64,000 bases of DNA, from the NCBI RefSeq assembly GCF_963921235.1, contig NC_086108.1, positions 39,744,001-39,808,000 on the forward strand, read 5' to 3'. A program made the position numbers and the translations under genes. This document shows, piece after piece, positions 16,690 through 57,160 of this stretch (position 1 is its first letter; each line of letters begins with the position of its first letter). This stretch comes from Mobula hypostoma (Eukaryota). The notes below the pieces were generated by a model. That model was not told where the DNA came from. It worked only from the letters and a program-made list of their open reading frames with translations, and did not search any database.

Positions 16690-16923
16690 GCAGGGGTAGC
16701 CGGGAGGCACACAGCACATCTTTAAGAAAAAAGCCGAAATAAACATGCTAATTAATTAGGTGCTGCCCAGCACGTAAATGTTGGCGCAGATCAGAGGCGA
16801 TTGCCGATTGCATCGGCACTGATCTGGGCCGACAATTACGTGCTAGGCGGCACCTAATTAATTAGCATGTTTATGTTGGCTTTTTTCTTAAAGATGTGCT
16901 GTGTGCCTCCCCGCTACCCCTGC
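16690..16923. repeat. Long imperfect palindrome (about 112-bp arms, about 10-nt loop)
   Basis: GCAGGGGTAGC...CTAATTAATTAGGTGC...GATCAGAGGCGAT pairs with ATCGGCACTGATC...GCACCTAATTAATTAG...GCTACCCCTGC. Confidence 0.93.
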
Positions 16924-19439: not shown

Positions 19440-21100
19440 CCCAAGCTGAGCATGTCGACCATCAACTTTTCTTCCAATTTCTGATCCATTTCTGACACCT
19501 TCCTTTCCTTTCTCAATCTCTGTCTCTGAAGACAGCTTATCTACCGCTATTATAAATCCATTGACTCTCACAGCTACCTGGACTATACCTCTTCCCACCC
19601 TGTTACTTGTAAAAAAAAAACCACTTCCTTTTCTGAATTCCTCTGTCTCCTCCACATCTGCTCTCAGACTGAGGCTTTTCATTCCAGAACTAAGGAGATG
19701 TCCTCCTTCAAAGAAAGGGGCTTCCCTTCCTCCTCCTCCTCCATCATCAACGCTGCCCTCAACCGCATCTCTTCCATCTCGCACAGGTTCTTGCCTCACC
19801 CCATCCTTCCACCACCCCACTAGGGATAGAGTTCCTCTCGTCCTCACCTACCACCCCACCAGCCTCTGCATCCTGCACATAGTTCTCCGTAACTTCCACC
19901 ATCTCCAGAAGGATCCTACCACCAAGGACATCGTTTCCTCCCCCCCACTTTCTGCTTTCTGCAGGTATTGCTTTCTACACGACTCCCTCCTACTGTCCAT
20001 TCGTGCCTCCCCACTGATCTCCCTCCTGGCACTAATCCTTGCAAACAGATCAAGAGCTACACCTGCCCCTACACCTCCTTCCTCACTACGATTCAGGGCC
20101 CCAAACAGTCCTTCCAGCTGAGGTGACACTTCACCTGTGAGTTTATATCCGATGCTCCTAGTGTGGTCTCCTGTATGTTGCTAAGACCTGATGCAGATTG
20201 GGAGACCACTTCACCAAGCACCTATGCTTCGTCTGCCATAAAAATCAAGTTCTCCCAGTGGCCAGTCATTTTAATTCCACTCCCCATTCCCATTCTGATA
20301 TGTCTGTCCATGGCCTCCTCTACTGTTGGTCACAATGAGGCCACATTCGTGTTGGAGGAGCAACACCTTGTATTCCACCTGGGTAGCCTCCAACCTGATG
20401 GCATGTCCCTCCCACCCCCCCACCTTTACCATTCCCCATTCCCACTTCCCTCTCACCTTATCTGCTTATCATCTCCCTTTGGTGCTCCTCCCCCTTTTTC
20501 CATAGCCTTCTGTCCATAAGACCATAAAATATAGGAAAAGAATTAGGCCATTTGGCCATCAAGTCTGTTCTACCATTCAATCATGACTAATCCTTTTTTT
20601 AAATAGTTGACATTTTGGGCCGAGACCCTTCATCAGAACTGGAGGAAAAAAGATGAGAAATCAGAGTAAGAAGGTGGGGGGAGGGGAGGAACCAATACAA
20701 GGTAGTAAGTGATAGGTGAAACCAGGAGGGGAGGAAGGGTGAAAGCTGGGAAGTCGATTAGTAAATGAGATAAAGGGCTGAAGAAGAGGGAATCTGACAG
20801 GAAAAGACAGAAGGCCATGGAAGAAAGAGAAGGTGTCCTCTCCTATCAGATTCCCCCTTCTCCAGCCCTGTATCTCTTTCACCAATCAACTTCCCAGCTC
20901 TTTACGTGACCCTCACCCCCCCCAACCCTGGTTTTAGCTATCACCTTGCAGTTCTTCCTCCCCAACCCCCACTTTCTTACTGATTCCTCATCTTTTTTTC
21001 CGGTCCTGATGAAAGATCTCGGCTCAAAACATTGACTGTACTCTTTCCTATAGATGCTGCCTGGCCTTTTGAGTTCCTCCAGCATTAGATGTTTATTGCT
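19440..21100 (+). mobile_element. Penelope-like element (Neptune type): RT C-terminus, Cys linker, GIY-YIG remnant, terminal repeat with degenerate hammerhead
   Basis: Frameshifted DSHSYLDYTSSHP, RDRVPLVLTYHPTS, PCKQIKSYTCPYT, EEQHLVFHLGSLQPDGM; CTGATGA...CAAAAC at 21006-21030. Interrupted at 20516-20833. Confidence 0.88.
20516..20833 (-). mobile_element. Composite insert: PLE terminal-repeat fragment ending at hammerhead motif, joined to a CR1 3' tail
   Basis: 20516-20600 is a CR1 3' end (CCATAAGACCATAA tail); 20603-20833 is PLE pyrimidine-rich repeat with CTGATGA...CAAAATGTC on minus. TGTCC flanks both sides (20511-15, 20834-38). Confidence 0.7.
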
Positions 21101-22596: not shown

Positions 22597-24324
22597 TAAT
22601 TGGTATTTGCCCTATAGTTATCTTTTGCACTCTGATTTATATGAATTAGGCCACTGTTCTAAATGGAAAATTGTTGGTTAATTTGAATTCTGATTCACGT
22701 TTATTTACATCAGTAAATGTTTTTGTGGACTTTTCAAATATCAGGTGAAAGCTGGATTAACAGTCTGTCCCATGCACATCATTGGATTGCTGAATCCATT
22801 ACTTACCCCCAAATATAACATGAAGATGTTACAAAAGGTGCACTAAAGTATAAACAAATATCTCATGGTAGGCGGTTTAACTGCTGCAAAGTAGTCATGA
22901 TGTTGCTATTACTGAGGCTGTGATAGGTTTGTGGAGGTTAGTTCAAGAATCGGATAGTTGAAGGGAACCCAATCTACATTTGTTCCTCCAGTACACAGGA
23001 GGCCTTTTATGATCAGTGAATGAGGTATGCTAGATTGGAAGAACTGTGAGTGATTTGCAGCTTCATCTGGAAGGGGGTTGGTGAGAAGAGGGGAGTTGAA
23101 TGTCTACCAGCTTTGGTCAAGGAAATTAACAATGAAGATGAAGTGCTGTATACATGCTGTAATTCTTTTGACTTATTGAGATAAAACTAAGATGTTTTAG
23201 TAATAAAAACTAATAGTGAGAGTTTTATTTTCATTTGTGCAATTAGACTTTGATGCACTAATTGTTTGGAATTATATGTTGTATCTTCAAAATAAGATGA
23301 ATTATCATCCAACTAAAACCTTTGGCAACATGATTGTAGCTAGGGTTTAAGAATGTCTGTTCCAGTACATGACAGATAAAACTGATTTCTTAGTTTCTGA
23401 GTTCTGCCAATTTAATTTTAGTTAGATTTTCAGGTTCAACAAAACATAATCAGCATCACACACAAAATACTGGAGGAATTCAGCCAGTCAGGCAGCATCA
23501 ATGAAGGGGAATAAACATTTGACATTTTGGGCTGAGGCCCTTCATCAGGACTGGAAAGGAAGTAGGCAGAAGCCAGAATAAGAAAGTTGGGGGTGGGGGG
23601 GGGGAGGAATGAATACTAGCTGCCAGCTGATAGATGAAATCAGGTGGGTGGGCGGGGGAAGGGGGGAATGAAGAAAGTAGCTGGGAGGTGATAGGTGGAG
23701 GAAGCAAAGGGCTGAAAAAGAGGGAATCTGATAGGAAATGACTGTGGAAGAAGGGGAAGGAGGCGGGACACCAGAGGGAGGTGATGGGCAGATGTAGAGA
23801 AGAGAAATGGGGTGATGGGAACCAGAATGGGGAATTGGAAAAAAGAGAAGGAAAAGGGAGAAATTATTGGAAGTTAGAGAAATCAATGTTCATGTAATCA
23901 GGTTGGAGGCTACAGAATTTGTAGCCTCATCATGGCAGTAGAGGAAGTCGTTAATCAACATCTCAGTCTGGGAATGGGAAGTCAAATTGAAATGGATGGT
24001 CACCAGGAAATCCCATCTTTTGTGGTGGATGGAGCGAAGGTGCGCGACAAAGTGGTCCCTCAATCCATAGTACGTTGGGTCTCCTCACCAGTGTCGAGCA
24101 GGCCACACTTCGAGTACTGGTTATAGAAGACCACCCCAACTAGACTCACAGGTGAGCTGTTGCCTCACTTGTGTTCCTCCAGCATTTTGTGTGTTTTGCT
24201 CAAGATTTCCAGCATCTGCAGAATCTAAACAACAGGAATTCTGCAGATGCTGGAAATTCAAGCAACATACATCAAAGTTGCTGGTGAACGCAGCAGGCCA
24301 AGCAGCATCTATAGGAAGAGGCGC

Positions 24325-24360
24325 AGTCGACGTTTCAGGCCGAGACCCTTCGTCAGGACT
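24325..24360 (-). ncRNA. Minimal type-I hammerhead ribozyme motif (intact core)
   Basis: Minus strand AGTC-CTGACGA-AGGGTCTCGGCCT-GAAAC-GTC-GACT: stem I AGTC/GACT, core CUGANGA and GAAA, stem II hairpin, palindromic ACGU in place of stem III, GUC cleavage triplet. Confidence 0.85.
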
Positions 24361-24654
24361 AACTGAAGGAAGAGTGAGTAAGGGATTTGAAAGCTGGAGG
24401 GGGAGGGAGAGATGCAAAATGATAGGAGAAGACAGGAGGGGGAGGGATAGAGCCGAGAGCTGGACAGGTGATAGGCAAAAGGGGATACGAGAGGATCATG
24501 GGACAGGAGGCCTAGGGAGAAAGACGGGGGGGGGGGTGACCCAGAGGATGGGCAAGAGGTATATTCAGAGGGACAGAGGGAGAAAAAGGAGAGTGAGAGA
24601 AAGAATGTGTGCATAAAAAGGAGTAACAGCTGGGGTACGAGGGGGAGGTGGGGC

Positions 24655-24948
24655 CTAGCGGAAGTTAGAGAAGTCAATGTTCATGCCATCAGGTTGGAGG
24701 CTACCCAGAAGGAATATAAGGTGTTGTTCCTCCAACCTGAGTGTGGCTTCATCTTTACAGTAGAGGAGGCCGTGGATAGACATGTCAGAATGGGAATGGG
24801 ATGTGGAATTAAAATGTGTGGCCACTGGGAGATCCTGCTTTCTCTGGCGGACAGAGCGTAGATGTTCAGCAAAGCGGTCTCCCAGTCTGCGTCGGGTCTC
24901 ACCAATATATAAAAGGCCACATCGGGAGCACCGGACGCAGTATATCAC
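24655..24948 (-). CDS. PLE GIY-YIG endonuclease domain (C-terminal fragment of a 5'-truncated element ORF)
   Basis: VIYCVRCSRCGLLYIGETRRRLGDRFAEH...PVATHFN...H...EEQHLIFLLGSLQPDGMN: GIY/YIG motifs with CxxC, catalytic Arg/Glu/Asn positions and His residues. Not an independent gene. Confidence 0.85.
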   Translation of the reverse strand: MIYCVRCSRCGLLYIGETRRRLGDRFAEHLRSVRQRKQDLPVATHFNSTSHSHSDMSIHGLLYCKDEATLRLEEQHLIFLLGSLQPDGMNIDFSNFR

Positions 24949-27164
24949 CCCAGTCGACTCACAGGTGAAGTGAATCTCCTGTGTTTAAAAATTGGCTTCA
25001 TTTTGTAGCCACAAACATAATTGCTCTGATTTTGAATTTATTTCTTCCTGGATACAAAAACTTGTTTAGAATTATTGCTGTACTATTTTAGGGAGATATG
25101 CACCACGTCTGAGCTTGTACCCTTATTTCTGTTGGTGACAGCTGCACTTAGAAACCAGCATGCAATGAAATACATGTTACCAATATTGACTAAATTTTTA
25201 ATGTCTAGCACAAGAAAAATTTAAGTTATTGTTTAATTAACAAGACTGATCATATGTGACTCCACAACAACTTTAACAAGAACTTTTAAAAGTAATTTGA
25301 TAGTTATATTGACATCTTTTAACTAAATGGATCATGCGAAAGTTTAAGCAACAGCTAAGCAAATTCTGTTGCGTATCTTAAAAGTGTCCTTGGTTTGCAT
25401 ATGAGAATTTGTACTGCTTGAACTGGGTATGTGTGATGAGACTGGCCCTTTAAAGGGCAGCTCCCACTAAGGATTTGTATTTGGCATGAGAAAAATTCCT
25501 AAACTAGACAGCTGAATATATTCCTCAAAGATGACAGCAGGATCAGGGGTCGGTTGTCATTTTGAATCATTTGGAAAGTTTGATTGTATTACATCTAAGT
25601 CTAAAATTCTTTGAATATTGCCATCATTTGTTAAGTTGTCATGTTACTTTTATTCCATAGGCATACACAATGTTAATTAAGTATTTAAATTTATTAAAAT
25701 CTGTTTTGTGCCCAGAGAACAAGTTTTGTATTTGAATCTATCATGAACCTTCTACTTGTGGAGACGAAATGTAATTTTGTTTGTTAGACTTGTGAAGAGA
25801 AAGTGCAAGGCAATAATTCTTATTTCGTGCTTGAAATGACTTGCAGTATCAACATGTTTGAAAGCTTCAATGTAATGAACAGTTGGTCAGGCATTTTGGA
25901 GCAGTCAGAAGCTTAGTGTTAGCTTGAATATTGAGACATTGTATGATATTTTGGCATTCCAAAGGAAAACAAATATAAAATGTTGAATTGTGTGCTATTT
26001 TCAATTTGCTGCTTTTTTTGATCTGAAGCATATTTATCAAATAAACATTAGCATTATGTTCATTTTAATAACCTTAGAAGAGCAGACAATCATACTAAGT
26101 GTTTTCTTGTTGCCTACTGTGAGTTATCAGCAAACATAAGCTGTAATTAGCATTCAGGCAGTATGTTTTCTGAGAACAATAATTTTGTTCAGTTTGTTTC
26201 ACGGCACCTTTGTGGGCGTGTGCCGTAATGGACTGTGGATGGAACACATTGTAACTTGATCTGTTTCAATTTAATCCCGAGAGCTAACAGATGAAGTATC
26301 AAGATGTGACTCAGGTCATTTGTCAGAAGTGCAGTGTTCAGTATTGTGGATAGAAGACTTGTGCCTATGTATGTTTCCAAGAGGATTCTATACAATGTTT
26401 CTGTGGAGCTTTTTCTTTTAATGTTGTCTAAGTATGAATCTCATAGTTGTGTTGGAATTGGAGCATTTGTGAATGGTTTGTAAACCAAACAATGAAACTG
26501 GAAAATGCAGTGAGGTCTAGGAGGTACAGAAGTAAATGTAATTACTACTAACAGTGTTAATACTGGCAATAGCAGGGAAATTGTTGATTTGAATATGTTG
26601 GATGGATCAGATAACAGTAACTGGTAACAGTAAATTAATTAGTTCAATGTGAAACCATATGTTTCATTTCCATGTGCAAAGAATATTAATGCAAGTTATT
26701 GCAGGTATTCTAATTTAATCATTTTGTTGCAAATGGTGTTTATTATAAGCAACTTAGCTTCAGTACCTTCTTTATTGCAATACTGACTTTTTTATTGTCT
26801 AAAGCAGTTAAGGACTTCCTCCTCTATGATAATGTAAATGTGAAACTGCCTGTGACTAGAGCAGAGGAATTAATGTTCAGATGCTAGGTCTAAAGGCTGA
26901 TTATTGAAATGTAATGTGGCTCAGAGTATTTGCCATCAGTGATTAAGGGAGCTAGATTGATTCCTTCAGAAGTAGCCTTTTTACAAAGTAGATTTGTTTT
27001 TTTTGTAAAACGTTTACATAAAACAATTAAACATATATTTCGTTTTTAGAGTAAAGCTAATGGTTAGATTTCTGTTGATTTGCACAACATTCTTGTGCGA
27101 GAAATTTTGCTGTCTGCAGTTTGAGATAAAGCCTCATTAACTTGGTAATATGACAGAAAGTAAC

Positions 27165-27377
27165 ACACATCAAAATTGCTGGTGAATGCAGCAGGCCAGG
27201 CAGCATCTCTAGGAAGAGGTACGGTCGACATTTCTGGTCAAGACCCTTCGTCCTGATGAAGTGTCTCAGCCCGAAATGTCGACTGTACCCCTTCCTAGAG
27301 ATGCTGCCTGGCCTGCTGCGTTCACCAGCAACTTTGATGTGAGTTGCTTGAATTTCCAGCATGTGCAGATTTCCTCG
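27165..27377. mobile_element. Fold-back (head-to-head) PLE terminal mini-element with hammerhead motif
   Basis: 14-bp TSD TGACAGAAAGTAAC (27151-64, 27378-91); about 88-bp inverted arms joined at GTC 27250-52; plus-strand GTC-CTGATGA...CGAAAT-GTC-GAC at 27250-27283. Confidence 0.92.
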
Positions 27378-27776: not shown

Positions 27777-30328
27777 TAATTACAAATAAGAACTCATTTC
27801 CAATTGAGATAACTCTTCATCATTCTTTCTTCAAAATCAATTGCAATAATTCTGAATGATAAAGAGCTATCTCAATTGGAAATGTGTTTGTAAGGATTAT
27901 TGTTTTATTGTCTGAATCCAGATGCCATGTGAATTTCAGCAGATCATAATCTTAACAGAGACATGAGAAATGGTTCCTTAGATTTTTAGTTCACCCCTTG
28001 ACAAATTGAGTTTTTCTTACTTACCATTTCTAGGACTGTTAAGTAGCTAGGTGCTGAGATTTTACAATATGTCTCTTTCACTGATATTTTCGGTCGTGAA
28101 GCTTATTTGGCAAAGCTGGTTGATCATATAGCTACCTTTTTATTTATTGTCAAGGTATTAAATAAGTTAATGAATTGTGGATATAGAATAGATAAAAGTC
28201 ATCCATGATAGATAGTGAAGCTGTAAACAAAACAATATATTATGCTTAATACACCAAGGATATCTTTTGGGATAAAAAGCATTTGAGCACTAGAAAAGTT
28301 ATGCTTTAGACTTGTAAAATGAGTGACAGTATTGATTTATATATTCCTTTGGCATTGATTGCTGGTGTTTGTTCAGCTTCCTTCTGTTTGAATTTTGGAT
28401 TTAAAGATCAATAATAATATTGTTTCACTTTTGGAAATACTAAAATTTAACCTTTGCAGTGTTTGGAAAGGTGAATTGTGGATAACATTCAGACCTGAAT
28501 ATCTAATCGCTGTGGGGGATTTCTTGCTCTTGTGAGGTAATGTCATTCCTGACATGGGAGGTCACTTTGCTTGGCCCGTGAGACTTGAGACTGTGAAAAC
28601 AATCTCAGTTTCTGGGCCCTCCACCTTGGTGGTTGTAAGAGTTGATTCTGAGACTTCAGGAAGTGGTTCTGACAGCTCTGGACACCTTTCCTCTCCATTT
28701 CTTGGCTCTTCACTTTCCTTTTTCTTCTAGTTTGTGCACCTTGATCCTGGGAAGGTCCATTTAGTTCAAGGGAGTATTCTCTTATTAATCCTTCTATTTC
28801 TCCCTTTATAATCTGATACCCTCTCGGTTTCCTCATCCACAACATCATCTGATAGATCCTCTGTTTTCATATCTTTATTGACCCCTTTCTTTTCGGTCTT
28901 CCATTCACTTTGCAGGCTTTTGTATCAACCTTTACAAGCAGCTTTTATTCTCCCACTTGAAGTTCATACAATAACATTAATGTACACAGATTAGATTCTG
29001 GTTCTTTATACGCAGAAAAGCCATATGCTTGCGACTTTCCTGTAGCTCCTTGAACTCTCTTCCAATTTAAAACCAAGCCATGGTTCACAAGTAACTGCCT
29101 GGTTAGCATATCAGAAGCTTTTTCAGATATGTTGCCTACAAAAACTGTTGGAGTCGGACCAGTATTTTCTTCACTTACTCACTTCCTCTGAGCAGCATGG
29201 TCTTTCCTTGGTCCAATATGCTTTCCAATCTGAGGCACAGAGACTGGGATCAACACCTGCTTGCTCTCTGTTACGCAATGGTTCTTGGTTTTCAGTATGG
29301 AAGTGGTTGTGGCAAAATCCAGTACTTTTCTTAATTTGATTTCAGTTGTCTCAATTTCAGGGGATGTGGCATATAAGTTATGGATGGATCTCCTTTCAAG
29401 TTGTAGTTGTCTGTCACTCACGACCTCAGAACGCCAGCTCTCCTGTATTACCACATGCAAGCCCAATGTGGCTTGTTGGTTGTGGTATTTCACTGTCATG
29501 AATGTCATTCCCACAGGAATGATCTTTTCTCCAGTATAAGTTCTTAGTTGGATATCTGGAGGCTTCAGTTTAGTATCTTTGAAATGCTGTTCAAACTAAT
29601 TTTGTGAAATAATTGAAACAGCTGAGTCAGTGTTGAATTCCATTTTAATTAATTTGCCATTCACTTCTGTTGTAAGCCATTTTGCTTGTCTACTATTAGT
29701 TTTCACATTGTAAAATCTCAAGGCTATTCAGTCCTGTGTCACTCATCATTATCAGATTTTTCATTAATAGCATGCAGATTAGTGCTCTTTTTGAAACTAC
29801 AACTTGACTTTTATCTTTTTCTCTTCCATGTGCAGTCCGTTTACTTTTGTCTACCCAACATGCTCTTTTGCATGTGTCTTAATTTGTTGCATTTTCGGCA
29901 AGTTTCACCTTTAAACCTGCATTGGTCTAGTGTTTGTGACCCTCTGCCACAATGGTAACACAATTTGTTCGGCCAGGCCAGTTTCTTTTTAGAGATTGCA
30001 ATTTTGTTCATACTCACTTTCATTCTTGACTGGAACTCAATGGTATCTCCCACCACTGTTTCTATTGGTGCAGCTATTGTAGCTGCTCCTTTAAAAGTAC
30101 GTTGTGCTTCAGTTAGGAGCTGTTTTTGTATACTTTTTTTTGTATACTTTTTTTTTGTAAGATTCCACAAGCTAAACAATTTCTCAATGCATAATTAAGC
30201 CCATTACCGAACTGACGATGCTCAGACCTCTTCAATTCAGTCAGGTATGCTGAAAAGGACTTCCCTTCCTTTCGATTCCGTGTATGAAACCTAAAGCATT
30301 CTGCAATCAACAATGGTTTCAGTTCTAA

Positions 30329-31819
30329 ATGTTCCTGCAATACTTCCACAATATCAGCAGAACTTATAACTATATCCCTTCCCCACATGAAACCACCATG
30401 GTGGGCTTCACAGCTGAACAGTTGAGAAGACAGCTGAAACGTCTCAACCCAAGCAAGGCTGCAGGACCGGATGGTGTCAGTACCAGGGTACTCAAAGCCT
30501 GTGCCCCTCAGCTATGTGGAGTACTTCGCCATGTATTCAACCTGAGCCTGAGGCTCCGGAGGGTTCCTGTGCTGTGGAAGACGTTCTGCCTTGTCCCTGT
30601 GCCGAAGACGCCGCGCCCCAGCAGCCTCAATGACTACAGACCGGTGGCATTGACCTCCCACATCATGAAGACCGTGGAGAGACTTGTTCTGGAGCTGCTC
30701 GGGCCTGTGGTCAGGCCACACTTAGATCCCCTCCAGTTCACCTACCAGCCCCGACTAGGAGTTGAGGATGCCATCGTCTACCTGCTGAACCATGTCTACG
30801 TCCACTTGGACAAGCCAGCGAGCACTGTGAGGGTCATGATTTTTGACTTCTCCAGTGTGTTCAACACCATCCGCCCTGCTGTGCTGGGGGAGAAGCTGAC
30901 AGCGATGCAGGTGGATGCTTCCCTGTTGTCACGGATTCTTGATTACCTGACTGGCAGACCACGGTATGTGTGCTTGCAACACTGTGTGTCCGACAGAGTG
31001 ATCAGCAGCACTAGGGCTCCACAGGGGACTGTCTTGTCTCCCTTTCTCTTCACCATTTACACCTCGGACTTCAACTACTGCACAGAGTCTTGTCATCTTC
31101 AGAAGTTTTCTGATGACTCTGCCATAGTTGGATGCATCAGCAAGGGAGATGAGGCTGAGTACAGGGCTACGGTAGGAAGCTTTGTCACATGGTGTGAGCA
31201 AAATTATCTGCAGCTTAATGTGAAAAAGACTAAGGAGCTGGTGGTAGACCCGAGGAGAGCTAAGGTACTCGTGACCCCTGTTTCCATCCAGGGGGTCATT
31301 GTGGACATGGTGGAGGTTTTCAAATACCTGGGGATACGAATTGACAATAAACTGGACTGGTCAAAGAACACTGAAGCTGTCGACAAGAAGGGTCCGAGCC
31401 GTCTCTATTTCCTGAGGAGACTGAGGTCCTTTAACATCTGCTGGACAATGCTGAGGATGTTCTACGAGTCTGTGGTGGCCAGTGCTATCATGTTTGCTGT
31501 TGTGTGCTGGGGCAGCAGGCTGAGGGTGGCAGACACCAACAGAATCAAGAAACTCATTCGTAAGGCCAGTGATGTTGTGGGGATGGAACTGGACTCTCTG
31601 ACGGTGGTGTCTGAAAAGAGGATGCTGTCCAAGTTGCATGCCATCTTGGACAATGTCTCCCATCCACTACATAATGTACTGATTGGGCACAGGAGTACAT
31701 TCAGCCAGAGACTCATTCCACCGAGATGCAGCACAGAGCGTCATAGGAAGTCATTCTTGCCTGTGGCCACCAAACTTTACAACTCCTCCCTTGGAGGGTC
31801 AGCCACCCTGAGCCAATAG
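30329..31819 (+). CDS. Open 496-aa reverse transcriptase ORF of Rex1/Babar copy B (no endonuclease domain; ATG from flank)
   Basis: Uninterrupted frame with KAAGPDGV, NDYRPVALTSHIMK, DFSSVFNTI, PQGTVLSPFLF, KFSDDSAI, FKYLGI and C-terminal domain. The first ~12 codons lie in antisense Gypsy sequence. Expression not shown. Confidence 0.75.
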   Translation: MFLQYFHNISRTYNYIPSPHETTMVGFTAEQLRRQLKRLNPSKAAGPDGVSTRVLKACAPQLCGVLRHVFNLSLRLRRVPVLWKTFCLVPVPKTPRPSSLNDYRPVALTSHIMKTVERLVLELLGPVVRPHLDPLQFTYQPRLGVEDAIVYLLNHVYVHLDKPASTVRVMIFDFSSVFNTIRPAVLGEKLTAMQVDASLLSRILDYLTGRPRYVCLQHCVSDRVISSTRAPQGTVLSPFLFTIYTSDFNYCTESCHLQKFSDDSAIVGCISKGDEAEYRATVGSFVTWCEQNYLQLNVKKTKELVVDPRRAKVLVTPVSIQGVIVDMVEVFKYLGIRIDNKLDWSKNTEAVDKKGPSRLYFLRRLRSFNICWTMLRMFYESVVASAIMFAVVCWGSRLRVADTNRIKKLIRKASDVVGMELDSLTVVSEKRMLSKLHAILDNVSHPLHNVLIGHRSTFSQRLIPPRCSTERHRKSFLPVATKLYNSSLGGSATLSQ

Positions 31820-31974
31820 GCTGGTCCTGGACTTATTTCCTGGCATAATTTACATACTACTATTTAACTATTTATGGTTTTATTACTACTTATTATTTAT
31901 GGTGCAACTGTGACAAAAACCAATTTCCCCCGGGATCAATAAAATATGACTATGACTACTATGACTATGACTAT
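30365..31974 (+). mobile_element. Rex1/Babar LINE, copy B (5'-truncated, young)
   Basis: Near-identical to 1-1710; continuous RT frame; AATAAA followed by (ATGACT)n tail at 31945-31974. Gypsy gag is colinear across it. Confidence 0.95.
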
Positions 31975-42276: not shown

Positions 42277-42802
42277 CGTGGGGTGATTGCTAAGTTTGTG
42301 GCCTAAGGTAGAAGGAGTCAATTTTAGAAAACCTAGCATATTTATTTTTCAACATAGTCCCCTCCTACATTTACACACTTAGTTCAGCGGTCGTGGAGCA
42401 TACGGATCCCTTCTTTGTAAAAGTCGGTGTCTTGGACCTCCAGAAAGTGGTCCATAGCAGGGGTGATTGATAAATTCGTGGCCTAAGGTAGAAGGACATG
42501 AGTTATACAGCTCTCGTTACACGCACATGCAGTTCAACTCTTTTTGAGTGATTATGCAGGAAGTTTGAAATTAATAACTCATCTCCTTCCACCTTCGGCC
42601 ATGAACTTATCAATCACCCCGCTGTGGACCACTTTCTGGAGGTCCAAGACATCGACTTCTACAAAGAAGGGATCCGTATGCTCCACGACCACTGGACTAA
42701 GTGTGTAAATGTAGGAGTGGACTATGTTGAAAAATAAATGTGCTAGGTTTTCTAAAATTGACTCTTTGTACCTTAGGCCACAAACTTATCATTCACCCCT
42801 TG
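42277..42802. mobile_element. Fold-back mariner-derived MITE (526 bp, about 230-bp inverted arms)
   Basis: TA flanks (42275-76, 42803-04); arms 42277-42506 and 42574-42802; 42621-42737 translates to the mariner transposase C-terminus AVDHFLEVQDIDFYKEGIRMLHDHWTKCVNVGVDYVEK*. Confidence 0.93.
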
Positions 42803-44315
42803 TACAATGTAAAAAGAAGCAATCCCAGCACCAAGCCCTGTGGAACTCCACTAGTCACCACCAGCAGCCAATCAGAAAAGGCTAACTTTATTCCTAACTT
42901 TTTGCCTCCTGCCAAACAGGCAATGCTCTTGCCATGCTATTATCTTTCCTGTAATACCATGGGCTCTTATCTTACTAAGCAGCCTTTTGTGTGACACCTT
43001 GTCAAAAGCATTTTGAAAATCCGAGTACATGACATCCACCAATTCTCCTTTGTCAATTCTGCTTGTTATTTCCTCAAAGAATTCTAATAGGTTTGTCACG
43101 CATGATTTTCGCTTGAAGAAAGCATGCTGACTTTGGCCCATTTTATCTTTTGTTGCCAAGTACCCTGAAACCTCTTCCTTAACAATTGACTCCAGCGAAC
43201 TTCTAACCACTGAGGTCAGGCCTATAATTTCCTTTCTTCTGCCTCTCTCCTTTCTTGAACAGAGGAGTGACATTTGCAATTTTCCAGAAATCTAGAACCA
43301 TGCCAGAATCCAGAAGATCATTACTAATGCCTCCACAGTCTCTTCAGATACCTCTTTCAGAACCCAGGGGTGTAGTCCATCTGGTCCAGGTAACTTAGCC
43401 ACCTTCAGACCTTTCAGTTTCTTAAGTGCCTTCTTCCTCGTAATAGCAATTGCACTCACTTCTGTGTTCCGACACTCTCGAACTTCTAGTATACTGCTGT
43501 GTGTTCCACAGTGAAGCCTGATGCAAAATACTTATTCAGTTTGTCTGCCATTTCCTTGTCCTGCATTACTACCTACCAAGCGCCATTTTCCAGTGGTCTG
43601 ATATCTATTCTTGCATGTTTTTACTCTATATATCTGAAAAAGCTCTTGATATCCTCTTTGATATTATTGGCTAGCTAACCTTCATACTTCATCTTTTCCA
43701 TCCTTATGGCTTCCTTAGTTGCCTTCTGTTGGTTTTTAAAAGCTTCCCAATCCTCTAACTTCCCACTATTTTTGCTCTATTATGTTTTCTCTTTTGCTTT
43801 TATGTTGGCTCTGACTTCCCTTGTCAGCTACAGTTGTGTCATCCTGTCGTTAGAATACCACTTCAGGATTTATTTATCCTGTGCCTTTCAAATTGCTCCC
43901 AGAAACTCCAGCTATTGTTGCTCTGATGTCAGCCTTGCTAGTGTTGCCTCCCAGTCAAATTTGGCCAGCTTATCTCTTATGCCTCTGTAATTCCCTTTAC
44001 TCCACTGTAATGCATTCCACTGTAATACTGATGCATGTGATTTTTAGCTCCTCCCTCTCAAATTGCAAGGTGAATTCTATCATGTTAAGGATTCCTTTAC
44101 TATAAGCTCCCTCATCAAATCTGATTCATTACACAACACAAATCTGGAGTAGCTGATCCCCTAGTAGACTCAACCACAAACTGCTCTTAACAACCTCATT
44201 TCATAGATATTCTATAAATTCTCTCTCCTGGGAACCAAAAGCAGCAGCAACCTGATTTTCCCAATCTAGCTGCATATTGTGATCCCCATGACTATCGTAA
44301 CATTGCTCTTTTGAC

Positions 44316-44489
44316 GCAAACAACAGGAATTCTGCAGATGCTGGAAATTCAAGCAACATACATCAAAGTTGCTGGTGAACGCAGCAGGCCAAGCAGCATC
44401 TATAGGAAGAGGCGCAGTCGACGTTTCAGGCCGAGACCCTTCGTCAGGACTAACTGAAGGAAGTCCTGACGAAGGGTCTCGGCCTGAAA
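44316..44489 (-). mobile_element. Young 174-bp PLE mini-insertion: tail + intact hammerhead + inverted partial hammerhead
   Basis: 10-bp TSD CTCTTTTGAC (44306-15, 44490-99); 44318-44463 identical to 24227-24372; inverted AGTCCTGACGAAGGGTCTCGGCCTGAAAC at 44462-44490. Confidence 0.93.
44416..44451 (-). ncRNA. Minimal type-I hammerhead ribozyme motif (intact core)
   Basis: Identical to 24325-24360: AGTC-CTGACGA-stem II-GAAAC-GTC-GACT on minus strand. Confidence 0.85.
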
Positions 44490-44968
44490 CTCTTTTGACA
44501 TGCTTTTCCTATTTCCTGTTGTAATTTGTAGCCCCATTCTGGCTGCTGTTTGGAAGTTTGTGTAAAACTCCCATCAGGTTCTTTTTATCCTATCAGTTCC
44601 TTTGCTCTACCCACAACAATTCAACATCTTACAATCCTATATCACCATTTTCTAAGGATTTGATTTCATTTTTGCCAACAGTGCCATGCCACCCCCTCTG
44701 CCTGATTGTGTATCCTTGGATGTTAAGCTTCCAACTATAGTCTTCTTTCAGCCACAACACAGTGATGCCCACAACATCATACCTGCCAACCTCTAACTGT
44801 GCTGCAAGAACATCTACCCTTATTCTGTATACTGCGTGCATTTAAGTATAATGCCTTCATTCCTATATTTATCACTATTTAAAATTCTGTCCCCTTGTTT
44901 CACTGCAACTCACTCCACTGACACCTAATTTGCCTGATCATCTGCTTGTCCTTTCTGACAGTCTCACT

Positions 44969-45740
44969 AATCAATTCAGATTCATTAAAAAAATGGACTC
45001 ATTGAGTTCCATGAGCCGGTAATCACTGGATGATCAGAGGTGGAGAAGGTCAGTCGCTTTAAATTCCTGTTTGTCACTCGGAGGACCTCTCATGGACCCA
45101 TCATATAAATATAATTGCAAAGAAAGCATGACAGTGTCTCTTCTTTCTCAGGAGGCTGTGGAGATTCGGTATGTCATCAAAAACCTTGGCAGACGTGTAG
45201 ATATGTGGTGGAAAGTGTGCTGACTGGCTGCATTACAGCCTGGTGTGGGAACATCAATGCCTTTGAGTGGAAAATCCTACAAAAGTTAGTGGATTTGGCC
45301 CTGTACATCACAGGTAATACTCTCCCAACTATTGAGCCCATCTAAACGAATTGTTGTAGAAAAACAGCATCCATCATCAAAGATCCTCACCACTCTATGC
45401 CATGTTCTTTTCTCGCTGCTGCAATCAGGTAGAAGGTACAAGTTCCTCAGGACTTGCACCACCAGGTTCAAGAACAGTTACTACCTCTCAACCATCAGGC
45501 TCTTAAACAAAAGGGGATAACTACACTCGTTATATTTCTGGTGTTCCTACAACCAATGGTCTCACTTTAAGGACTCTTTATCTTGTTATTTCATGCTCGT
45601 TATTTATTGCTATTTGCACAGTTTCTTGTCCGTTGATCCTGTTTACAGTTACTGTTGTATGGATTTGTAAATATGCCCATAGAAATCTCAGGGTTGTATG
45701 TGGTGTCATCTAAGTACTCTGATAGTAAATTTTACTTTGA
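44969..45740 (+). mobile_element. Rex1/Babar LINE 3' fragment nested in CR1
   Basis: YVVESVLTGCITAWCG and FSLLQSGRRYKFLRTCTTRFKNSYY motifs; CR1 flank GTCTCACT|GCACACTG continuous across it. Confidence 0.87.
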
Positions 45741-45841
45741 ACTGCACACTGCCTCTGCTTGTTTATCGACTGCCCTATCATCAGCCCTATCACTCAGTTC
45801 CCCTCCTCCCACCAATTTAGTTTAAACCCTCCTTATCGGTT

Positions 45842-46735
45842 CTAGCAAACCTGCCCGCAAGGATATTGGTCCCCCGTGGGTCCAGGTGTCCTTATGTACA
45901 GGTCATATCTTTTCCAAAAGAGATCCCAATTATCCAGAAATCTGAAATCCTGCAATCTGCAGCAGTTCCTCAGCCACGCATTCATCTTCCAAATCATCCT
46001 AGTAATATGCTCAGTGGCACATGGCACAGGCAGTAATCCAGAGATTACTACCCTGGAGGTCCTGCTTTTCAGCTTTCTACCTAGCTCCCCAAGTACTTTC
46101 TTCCGGACCTCCTCCCTTTTCCTACCTATGTCACTTGTGTCAATATGTACCAACACTTCTGCCTGCTCACCCTCCCCCTTTAAAGTGCTGTGGACCCGAT
46201 CTGAGATGTCCCTGACCCTGGGAACTGGGAGGCAACATACCATCCACGTGTCTCTGTTGCATCCATGGAATCTCCTGTTTACTCCTCTAACTGTGGAATC
46301 CTCTGTCACTGCTGCTGTCCTCTTCTTCCTCCTCCTGAGCCATAGTGCCAGACCCAGTGCTAAAGACCTGATGGCTGCAGCTTCTCCCTGGTAGGTTGTT
46401 TCCTGCCCCCCCCCCCAACAATATCCAAAGCGATATACTTATTATTGAAAGGAATGGCGACAGGGGTATTCTGCACTAGCTATCCATTTCCTTTCCCTCT
46501 CCTGACAGTCACACAGGTGCATGCCTCCTGGAACCTATTGGCGACTAACTCCCTATAGCTCCTATTTGTCACTTCCTCAGTTTCCCTTACGAGCCGAAGG
46601 TCATCAAGCTGCAGCTCCAGTTCCTTAACATGGTCTCTGAGGAGCTGCAGCTCAGTGCACCTGATGCAGATCTGATTATCTGGGAGCCTGAAGGTCTCCT
46701 AGAATTCCCAAATTTCTCACAGCCCCTGGTGCCAT
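45842..46735 (-). pseudogene. CR1 ORF1 remnant (N-terminal Cys/coiled-coil region + SGNH esterase-like domain)
   Basis: ORF 45842..46309: DSTVRG, VCCLP..RVRDI, VLVHIDTSDIG, RVVISGLLPVP, NAWLRNCC..FRFLDNWDLFW; upstream ICIRCTELQLLRDHVKELELQLDDLR; ATG at 46733-35. Confidence 0.82.
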
Positions 46736-49242: not shown

Positions 49243-49449
49243 TCACAGGAGATTCTGCAGATAGGTGTTGGATATCTTGAGAACACAAACTGAAGTCAGG
49301 CAACATCTATGGAGGGGTATAACGGTTGACGTTTCAGGTTGAGGCTCTTCATCAGTACTCCTGAAGGACCTTAGCCCAAAACATCGACTGTTTATTCCTC
49401 TCCTTAGATGCTGCCTGACCTGCTGAGTTTTCCAGCATTTTTGTGTGAT
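49243..49449. mobile_element. Older fold-back PLE terminal mini-element with two opposed hammerhead-derived motifs
   Basis: Minus arm with tail and CTGATGA...TGAAACGTC (about 49324-49359); plus arm TGAAGGACCTTAGCCCAAAACATCGACTG...AGATGCTGCCTGACCTGCTGAG. No clear TSD. Confidence 0.8.
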
Positions 49450-57064: not shown

Positions 57065-57160
57065 CAACACACATAAATGCTGAAGGAACGCAGCAGGCCA
57101 GGCAGCATCTATAGGAAGAGGTACAGTCGACGTTTTGGGCTGAGACCCTTCGCCAGGACA
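57065..57160 (-). mobile_element. 96-bp PLE terminal mini-insertion beginning at the hammerhead motif
   Basis: 11-bp TSD TAATTTGCATG (57054-64, 57161-71); minus strand GTC-CTGGCGA-AGGGTCTCAGCCC-AAAAC-GTC-GAC (core mutated). Confidence 0.9.

Follow-up and report, generated by a model that had tools for sequence, protein, structure and literature searches.

The insert at positions 44316..44489 of the window, the 64,000-nucleotide stretch of DNA analysed here, is 174 bases long and is a severely shortened copy of a very abundant Penelope-type element (PLE). We put at about 0.5 the probability that it was made in one integration by priming of both target strands on uncleaved element RNA. That it belongs to the class of terminal repeat copies of a young Penelope-like (GIY-YIG) element is close to certain. 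The head-to-head architecture of such insertions has already been published, and the insert is an ordinary example of this known pattern. Its inverted arm stops beside the predicted cut site of a hammerhead ribozyme, a position that is likely due to chance.

The insert, its target and its family

The element reads in sense on the minus strand. The forward arm (44316..44463, minus strand) is the 3' end of a PLE terminal repeat, 5'-truncated 11 nt above a minimal type I hammerhead motif (44415..44452, minus strand). It carries a 36-nt PLE tail (44316..44352, minus strand), which lies between the two start zones usual for PLE arms in the window and is found on the forward arm only. The inverted arm (44462..44490, plus strand) is 29 bp long and is the exact reverse complement of 44423-44451, confirming an earlier note's description of an inverted second hammerhead copy that ends at GAAAC, 3 nt before the cut. 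This arm contains the hammerhead core without the cleavage triplet and without the 3' strand of stem I; it overlaps the forward arm by two bases (AG at 44462-44463, common to both arms) and the right target-site duplication by one. The two arms form a fold-back hairpin around a 10-nt loop (44452..44461, assigned to no strand), with a stability well above that of shuffled sequences (z of about −9).

The 10-mer CTCTTTTGAC occurs at both 44306..44315 and 44490..44499 on the plus strand and extends no further on either side, so the perfect 10-bp target-site duplication claimed previously is present; the empty site of a related species, organism C, has one copy. Up to two bases at the end of the left duplication also match the element tail (contigs of the family match through 44314, with loose ends), and the last C of GAAAC also opens the right duplication. 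We rejected a later deletion as the cause of the short inverted arm, since arm end and duplication meet exactly.

Canonical EN+ PLE insertions are described as having an inverted 5'-truncated pLTR, a one-sided tail of 30-40 bp and a duplication (PMC3846280; PMC8557442), and the insert likewise has an adjacent inverted 5'-truncated copy in head-to-head orientation, a one-sided tail and a duplication of its target. In the Pen2a_Av / Pen2 derivative of Adineta vaga, head-to-head arms overlap at the junction as they do here, and the Pen2 insertions described in that species resemble the insert in having a tail on one side, a 9-10 bp duplication and another retroelement as target (PMC3846280). Unlike Pen2a, the insert has no ORF left, and its inverted arm is 29 bp long and starts ~105 nt inside the tail end, whereas the inverted arm of Pen2a is given as 37 bp shorter than the full repeat (PMC3846280).

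The target is a decayed LINE on the minus strand (42802..46399, outer bounds approximate), and the insert breaks the endonuclease-to-RT part of its ORF2. Remnants of an esterase-like ORF1 (45845-46399) and of an RT (42875-43291), both Pfam matches below curated cut-offs, fit what we take to be a CR1-type element; the proposed insertion into an old CR1 is upheld in this form. A second window copy of this LINE can be aligned to both flanks of the insert. Other repeats in the window include MITE-like palindromes unrelated to the PLE at 42280-42799, 16690-16923 and 27791-27888, the first of which sits at a break in the host LINE, and a 1.6-kb repeat present at 114-1709 and 30363-31970 in direct orientation with 94% identity.

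A sister copy of the same subfamily lies at 24227..24972 on the minus strand. Identity between 44318-44463 and 24227-24372 is complete (146/146 bases), with 6 CpG within 44318-44463 in a window whose overall CpG observed/expected ratio is 0.27; the earlier observation of identity with CpGs intact is therefore correct, and this identity ties the insert, itself non-coding, to the sister copy. On its minus strand, the sister copy holds the last 105 residues of a GIY-YIG endonuclease in an open frame (24655-24972), a pyrimidine-rich untranslated part, the hammerhead motif and the tail, and this C-terminal GIY-YIG upstream of the terminal repeat scores 25.4 bits against PF01541 (cut-off 22.6). The arrangement is one PLE nested in another: the young copy, with its own 6-bp duplication (24221-24226 and 24972-24977), sits close to the tail within the inverted tail arm of an older PLE (23451-25012) that has a 9-bp duplication. 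We rejected 24227-24972 as donor or master of the insert, because it is itself 5'-truncated, retaining only the C-terminus of its GIY-YIG domain, and the family is very abundant.

The nearest protein relatives of the sister copy are from rays, matching a Mobula hypostoma model at 95% and a Hypanus sabinus model at 89%. The best relative (P0002, 95%, 422 aa) comprises the C-terminal part of an RT, the endonuclease and, judged by eye, a Cys-rich linker; RVT_1 was matched below its cut-off only, in 2 of the 6 relatives scanned. As to full-length RT+GIY-YIG masters, none of 30 matches among 86 candidates (185-2000 aa) was a full-length, near-identical RT+EN ORF, which is weak evidence either way. 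A Cys-rich linker motif is reported for Neptune and is common to Nematis too (PMC8557442). The window copy is truncated before the linker; its presence in the nearest protein makes a Neptune-type family likely.

Arm boundaries and the route of insertion

We placed 13 PLE arms of the window on the coordinates of the insert, counting a pair near 20.6k that we flagged as unclear. Eleven of the 13 start in one of two zones, either at the tail end (5 arms, one by eye) or ~36 nt inside it (6 arms). Three of the 4 other inverted pairs combine an arm with a tail start and an arm that begins ~36 nt inside (the tail start of the 49.2k pair was placed by eye), and pairs with one arm per start zone are the pattern expected from two primings at two adjacent starts. 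The tail of PLEs is described in several reports (PMC11167929; PMC3846280; PMC8557442), and in the anole PLE it is defined by two adjacent RT start sites (PMC11167929); the two zones in the window match such sites. The inverted arm of the insert is the sole clean exception to this two-zone rule, starting ~70 nt inside the nearest usual zone.

The 5' ends of the arms are also clustered: 7 of 13 fall at the equivalent of 44445-44465, on the hammerhead's outer edge, and none of the 13 falls at the cut. In the sister copy, the minus-strand segment above the hammerhead (24359-24385) contains a branch-point-like word, a pyrimidine tract and two AG directly above stem I. A splice acceptor or RNA end in this segment might set the truncation hotspot; in Drosophila Penelope, the end of an intron is reported to map to the 5' end of helix I (PMC4209133).

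Under the reading that we prefer, the endonuclease would nick the target at two points 10 bases apart. The top strand would prime at the usual tail start through a 2-base match and copy 148 nt through the intact cut site, and its cDNA would end right above the hammerhead, as do most short copies in the window. The bottom strand would prime at an unusual internal GAAAC through a 1-base match and copy 28-29 nt to the same zone, and the two cDNA ends would then join through their shared AG/CT. The microhomology seen in the insert amounts to 2 bases where the tail joins the target, 2 at the point of inversion and 1 where the arm joins the target. The anole PLE, Poseidon of Anolis carolinensis (PAc), is described as cleaving and extending both strands from a pair of adjacent RT starts, with a hammerhead just upstream, and as inserting equally well when its ribozyme is dead (PMC11167929). 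The insert differs from PAc in its likely Neptune-type family and in an inverted arm that starts at neither usual site.

Several observations count against two-strand priming on uncleaved RNA. The start of the inverted arm ~70 nt inside the nearest usual zone has no explanation in this scheme; the target offered longer matches elsewhere in the repeat (5 bases at 44411 and 3 at 44435); an arm of the 20.6k pair in the window ends near the cut; and one type of read junction at other loci (44419 to 44468) lies on the cut. A related process is known from L1: in the 5' inversions produced by twin-priming, synthesis is primed from two target ends, and short microhomology joins the cDNAs within a single duplication. 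There the inverted segment derives from upstream RNA and is no repeat of the forward segment, whereas the inverted arm of the insert duplicates part of the forward arm.

This exact duplication is what would be produced if a single cDNA, made from the tail to 44463, folded back at CT (44450-44451) and copied 28 nt of itself, with repair then joining the cDNA end to the other target strand via one shared base. The class of the element would be the same. Such a snap-back would explain the non-standard arm end without an unusual RT start, and it suits both the 10-nt loop and the 2 bases shared between the arms; PMC3846280 interprets palindromes at junctions of inverted PLE copies as self-priming. 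However, just 2 paired bases would prime the fold-back, self-copying alone leaves the two-zone starts in 3 of the 4 other pairs unexplained, and the arms do not differ at any base that could tell one template from two. We consider a snap-back of one cDNA a possible but doubtful origin of the arm.

The earlier note had suggested that the inverted arm might record the use of self-cleaved RNA as template, which we judge unlikely. In this case, the bottom strand would have primed on the 5' product of the hammerhead, ending GAAACGUC, and the top strand on uncleaved RNA, with the last three bases of the primer pairing to C, U and C of the RNA end and one G bulged. The junction of GAAAC with TC equals the cleaved end less one base, and TC follows C in 7.6% of cases in the window (counted for that one register). 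An arm end 3 nt before the cut has a chance of ~5-6% if the end is free over 120 positions, and the longer matches that the target offered elsewhere favour this template as well. But the case was picked for the coincidence, and uncleaved RNA gives the same bulged pairing. Further, the forward arm spans the cut intact, so that two templates in different states would be needed, and no stop at GAAAC/GTC was found in the other 4 inverted pairs of the window. What survives of the suggestion is a junction that fits a bulged 3-base pairing with the cleaved end; the stop of the arm near the cut is likely chance.

Reads from other loci bear on the same question. Six of the 15 read joints listed, beyond which there are 916 more, link forward-arm positions to 44462-44468, and head-to-head junctions like that of the insert therefore exist at other loci. 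One of these junction types, seen in organism A, joins 44419 to 44468 on the cut site with 4 shared bases, at a depth of 71.5 in run X1 and 289.3 in X2 and of 0 in X5 and X9. Its presence speaks for a cleaved template, but 44419 is the other end of an arm and the 4 shared bases could explain the joint alone; it could be run-off on the 3' cleavage product or plain microhomology. Among the 24 loose-end rows listed, beyond which there are 3214 more, the tail end (44314-44318) is represented, and no pile of ends occurs at 44420-44423 or 44489-44490.

Published work on related elements also weighs against a cleaved template. Minimal PLE hammerheads are described as cleaving poorly in vitro, not at all as monomers and at a low level as dimers (PMC4209133). 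For the anole element, PMC11167929 describes an absence of RNA-seq ends at the cut, and uncleaved RNA as the main substrate in vitro. The literature covered, which is thin for subscription journals, including older PLE reviews, contained no report of PLE arms ending at a hammerhead cut.

In the 20.6k pair, the arm ends 4-8 nt 3' of the cut; this old pair borders a LINE 3' fragment and lacks a convincing duplication. Because this arm includes bases beyond the cut, we ruled out its origin from a 5' cleavage product. The surrounding composite (20130-21100) combines the 3' part of a PLE in sense orientation with a LINE 3' fragment and a PLE pair arranged head to head, the left arm of which ends a few bases beyond the cut site.

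Very improbable, in our assessment, is a self-propagating non-autonomous mini-element, retrozyme-like or SINE-like, that PLE proteins would copy as a 174-base unit. The insert does keep the tail and the adjoining RT start region, and animal non-LTR retrozymes, which have been argued to derive from PLE terminal repeats, resemble it in being non-coding and PLE-derived, in their type I hammerhead and in their similar length (bioRxiv 10.64898/2026.07.22.740005). Other short hammerhead-ended inserts are also present in the window, one at 57065-57160 with an 11-bp duplication and one in the 27.1k palindrome with a 14-bp duplication. Yet retrozymes are described as tandem arrays with at least 2 complete hammerheads (bioRxiv 10.64898/2026.07.22.740005), whereas the insert is no tandem array, has one complete hammerhead and an inverted partial one, and carries a ribozyme that is predicted to be sequestered. 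Its fold-back junction occurs once in the window, and each short insert there has its own ends. A self-copying mini-element finds no support in the window.

Older non-coding head-to-head PLE palindromes at 27165-27377 and 49244-49446 turn at the edge of stem I, and the copy at 57065-57160 is an older 96-bp solo PLE. Non-coding PLE stubs have been made over a long time.

The hammerhead and its predicted fold

On the minus strand, stem I (5 bp) pairs 44452-44448 with 44419-44415, and the core consists of CUGACGA (44447-44441) and GAAA (44427-44424) with a short helix II between them. A palindromic ACGU stands in place of helix III, and the predicted cut falls between 44420 and 44419. The forward arm accordingly carries the elements of a minimal type I motif (CUGANGA, GAAA, the cleavage triplet, helix I and a palindromic 15.2-16.2), and 3 of the 12 hammerhead stretches listed in the window passed all three motif checks. 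The minimal type I hammerheads described for metazoan PLEs share with the insert a conserved core, a 5-bp helix I, the lack of a stable helix III and the palindrome at 15.2-16.2, with a dimer predicted to be necessary (PMC4209133). The insert departs from them in a short helix II closed by G.U or A-U and in a core that is predicted to be locked in a hairpin of 28-29 bp.

The G10.1-C11.1 closing pair of helix II is absent, with G.U or A-U in its place in this subfamily. The majority variant in both organism A and organism B lacks this usual G-C pair, and the variant that gives the C accounts for ~24% of depth at 44428 in X1. At gathering level, Rfam gave 0 matches in the window; we rejected 10 weak matches around the insert, which are below cut-off and reflect the hairpin. 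We likewise rejected the plus-strand arm as a second ribozyme: it lacks a GUC, its helix III is mismatched, and its bases are taken up by the hairpin. In metagenome and viral contigs, exact scans for the hammerhead pattern gave 0 loci.

Fold prediction argues against the working ribozyme cassette that had been proposed. In a transcript of the element sense, the inverted arm emerges first and is predicted to pair with the whole core. To force the hammerhead stems is predicted to cost 40.5-41.8 kcal/mol in the insert, compared with 8.4-9.7 kcal/mol in the sister copy, and the predicted pair probabilities of stems I and II in the insert are 0.0 when the arm is transcribed. With the whole core in all likelihood sequestered by the arm, the insert is predicted not to be a working cassette, its ribozyme being shut catalytically by its own inverted arm. 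The insert is also predicted to have been dead on arrival as an element: it has no ORF, a single hammerhead without a dimer partner and an arm predicted to pair with the whole core.

Age, spread and significance

We compared the window with Logan contigs of four of 23 listed runs: X1 and X2 from organism A, X5 from organism B and X9 from organism C. X1 and X2 derive from a single sample, which may itself be the source of the window, and are not independent. Three X1 contigs (117, 214 and 171 aligned bases) match the window with 0 differences, and one X1 contig (record 5) crosses the filled right junction with just 25 letters on the arm side, below the 31-letter bridging rule applied. No empty-allele contig for X1 or X2 is among the rows listed; contigs drop variants, and this says nothing firm on zygosity.

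In organism C, by contrast with the filled window, a contig of 377 bases (record 26, depth 12.3) covers 44110-44305 and 44490-44670 with a single 10-mer between them, as expected of an empty site. It has single-copy depth, with 12 differences listed per piece, and is the sole contig in X9 to cover 44193; it is likely the orthologue. Organism B differs from the window by ~1.5% (5/327 bases over two contigs). X5 gave no identifiable filled junction and no identifiable orthologous empty one, and its joints over the site may stem from paralogous copies of the LINE. The insertion is lineage-specific and young on the scale of its family.

The abundance of the subfamily differs sharply between the runs. 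Summed depth at 44368 reaches 6.0 million in X1, 11.6 million in X2 and 22.5 million in X5, and 163.5 in X9, compared with single-copy depths of ~6-8, 8.5, 62-74 and 12-14, respectively; these sums are not copy numbers, as overlapping contigs inflate them by an estimated factor of up to ~31. The depths imply roughly ten thousand copies or more in organisms A and B and almost none in organism C, where the subfamily is nearly absent at diagnostic positions. The letters of the window at 44359 and 44413 account for at most 21% and at most 33% of depth in X1 and for 4% in X5; they are 5-8 times as common in organism A as in B. Because they are so much commoner in X1 than in X5, the variant in the window expanded mainly in the lineage of organism A. 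The insert and the sister copy, identical and 20 kb apart, most likely arose as separate insertions of a young, very abundant subfamily.

Identity by itself sets a loose limit on age. With 146 bases identical, the divergence of each lineage is limited to 0.6-1.0% (95%), or 0.8-1.3 times half of the distance between organisms A and B. At the rate of 7e-10 per generation reported for the epaulette shark (PMC10587355), this bound corresponds to millions of generations, and the permitted age reaches about the split from the closest sampled species. The earlier interpretation is upheld in part: the empty site in organism C, the near absence of the subfamily there and the variants enriched in organism A over B support a young PLE family as the source of the insertion, but very recent or current mobility does not follow from an identity that allows millions of generations.

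PLE hammerheads show poor cleavage in vitro, and insertion does not depend on them in the sole reconstituted system. If a cleaved template were the true origin of the inverted arm, the insert would be a genomic record of hammerhead cleavage in the germ line and of a cut RNA usable for integration. One selected case cannot show that arm ends are enriched just before the cut; if they are, this abundant family would offer a natural read-out of ribozyme activity during retrotransposition. The insert itself is a tidy young example of the PLE pattern, and its presence or absence is a candidate marker for telling ray species apart.
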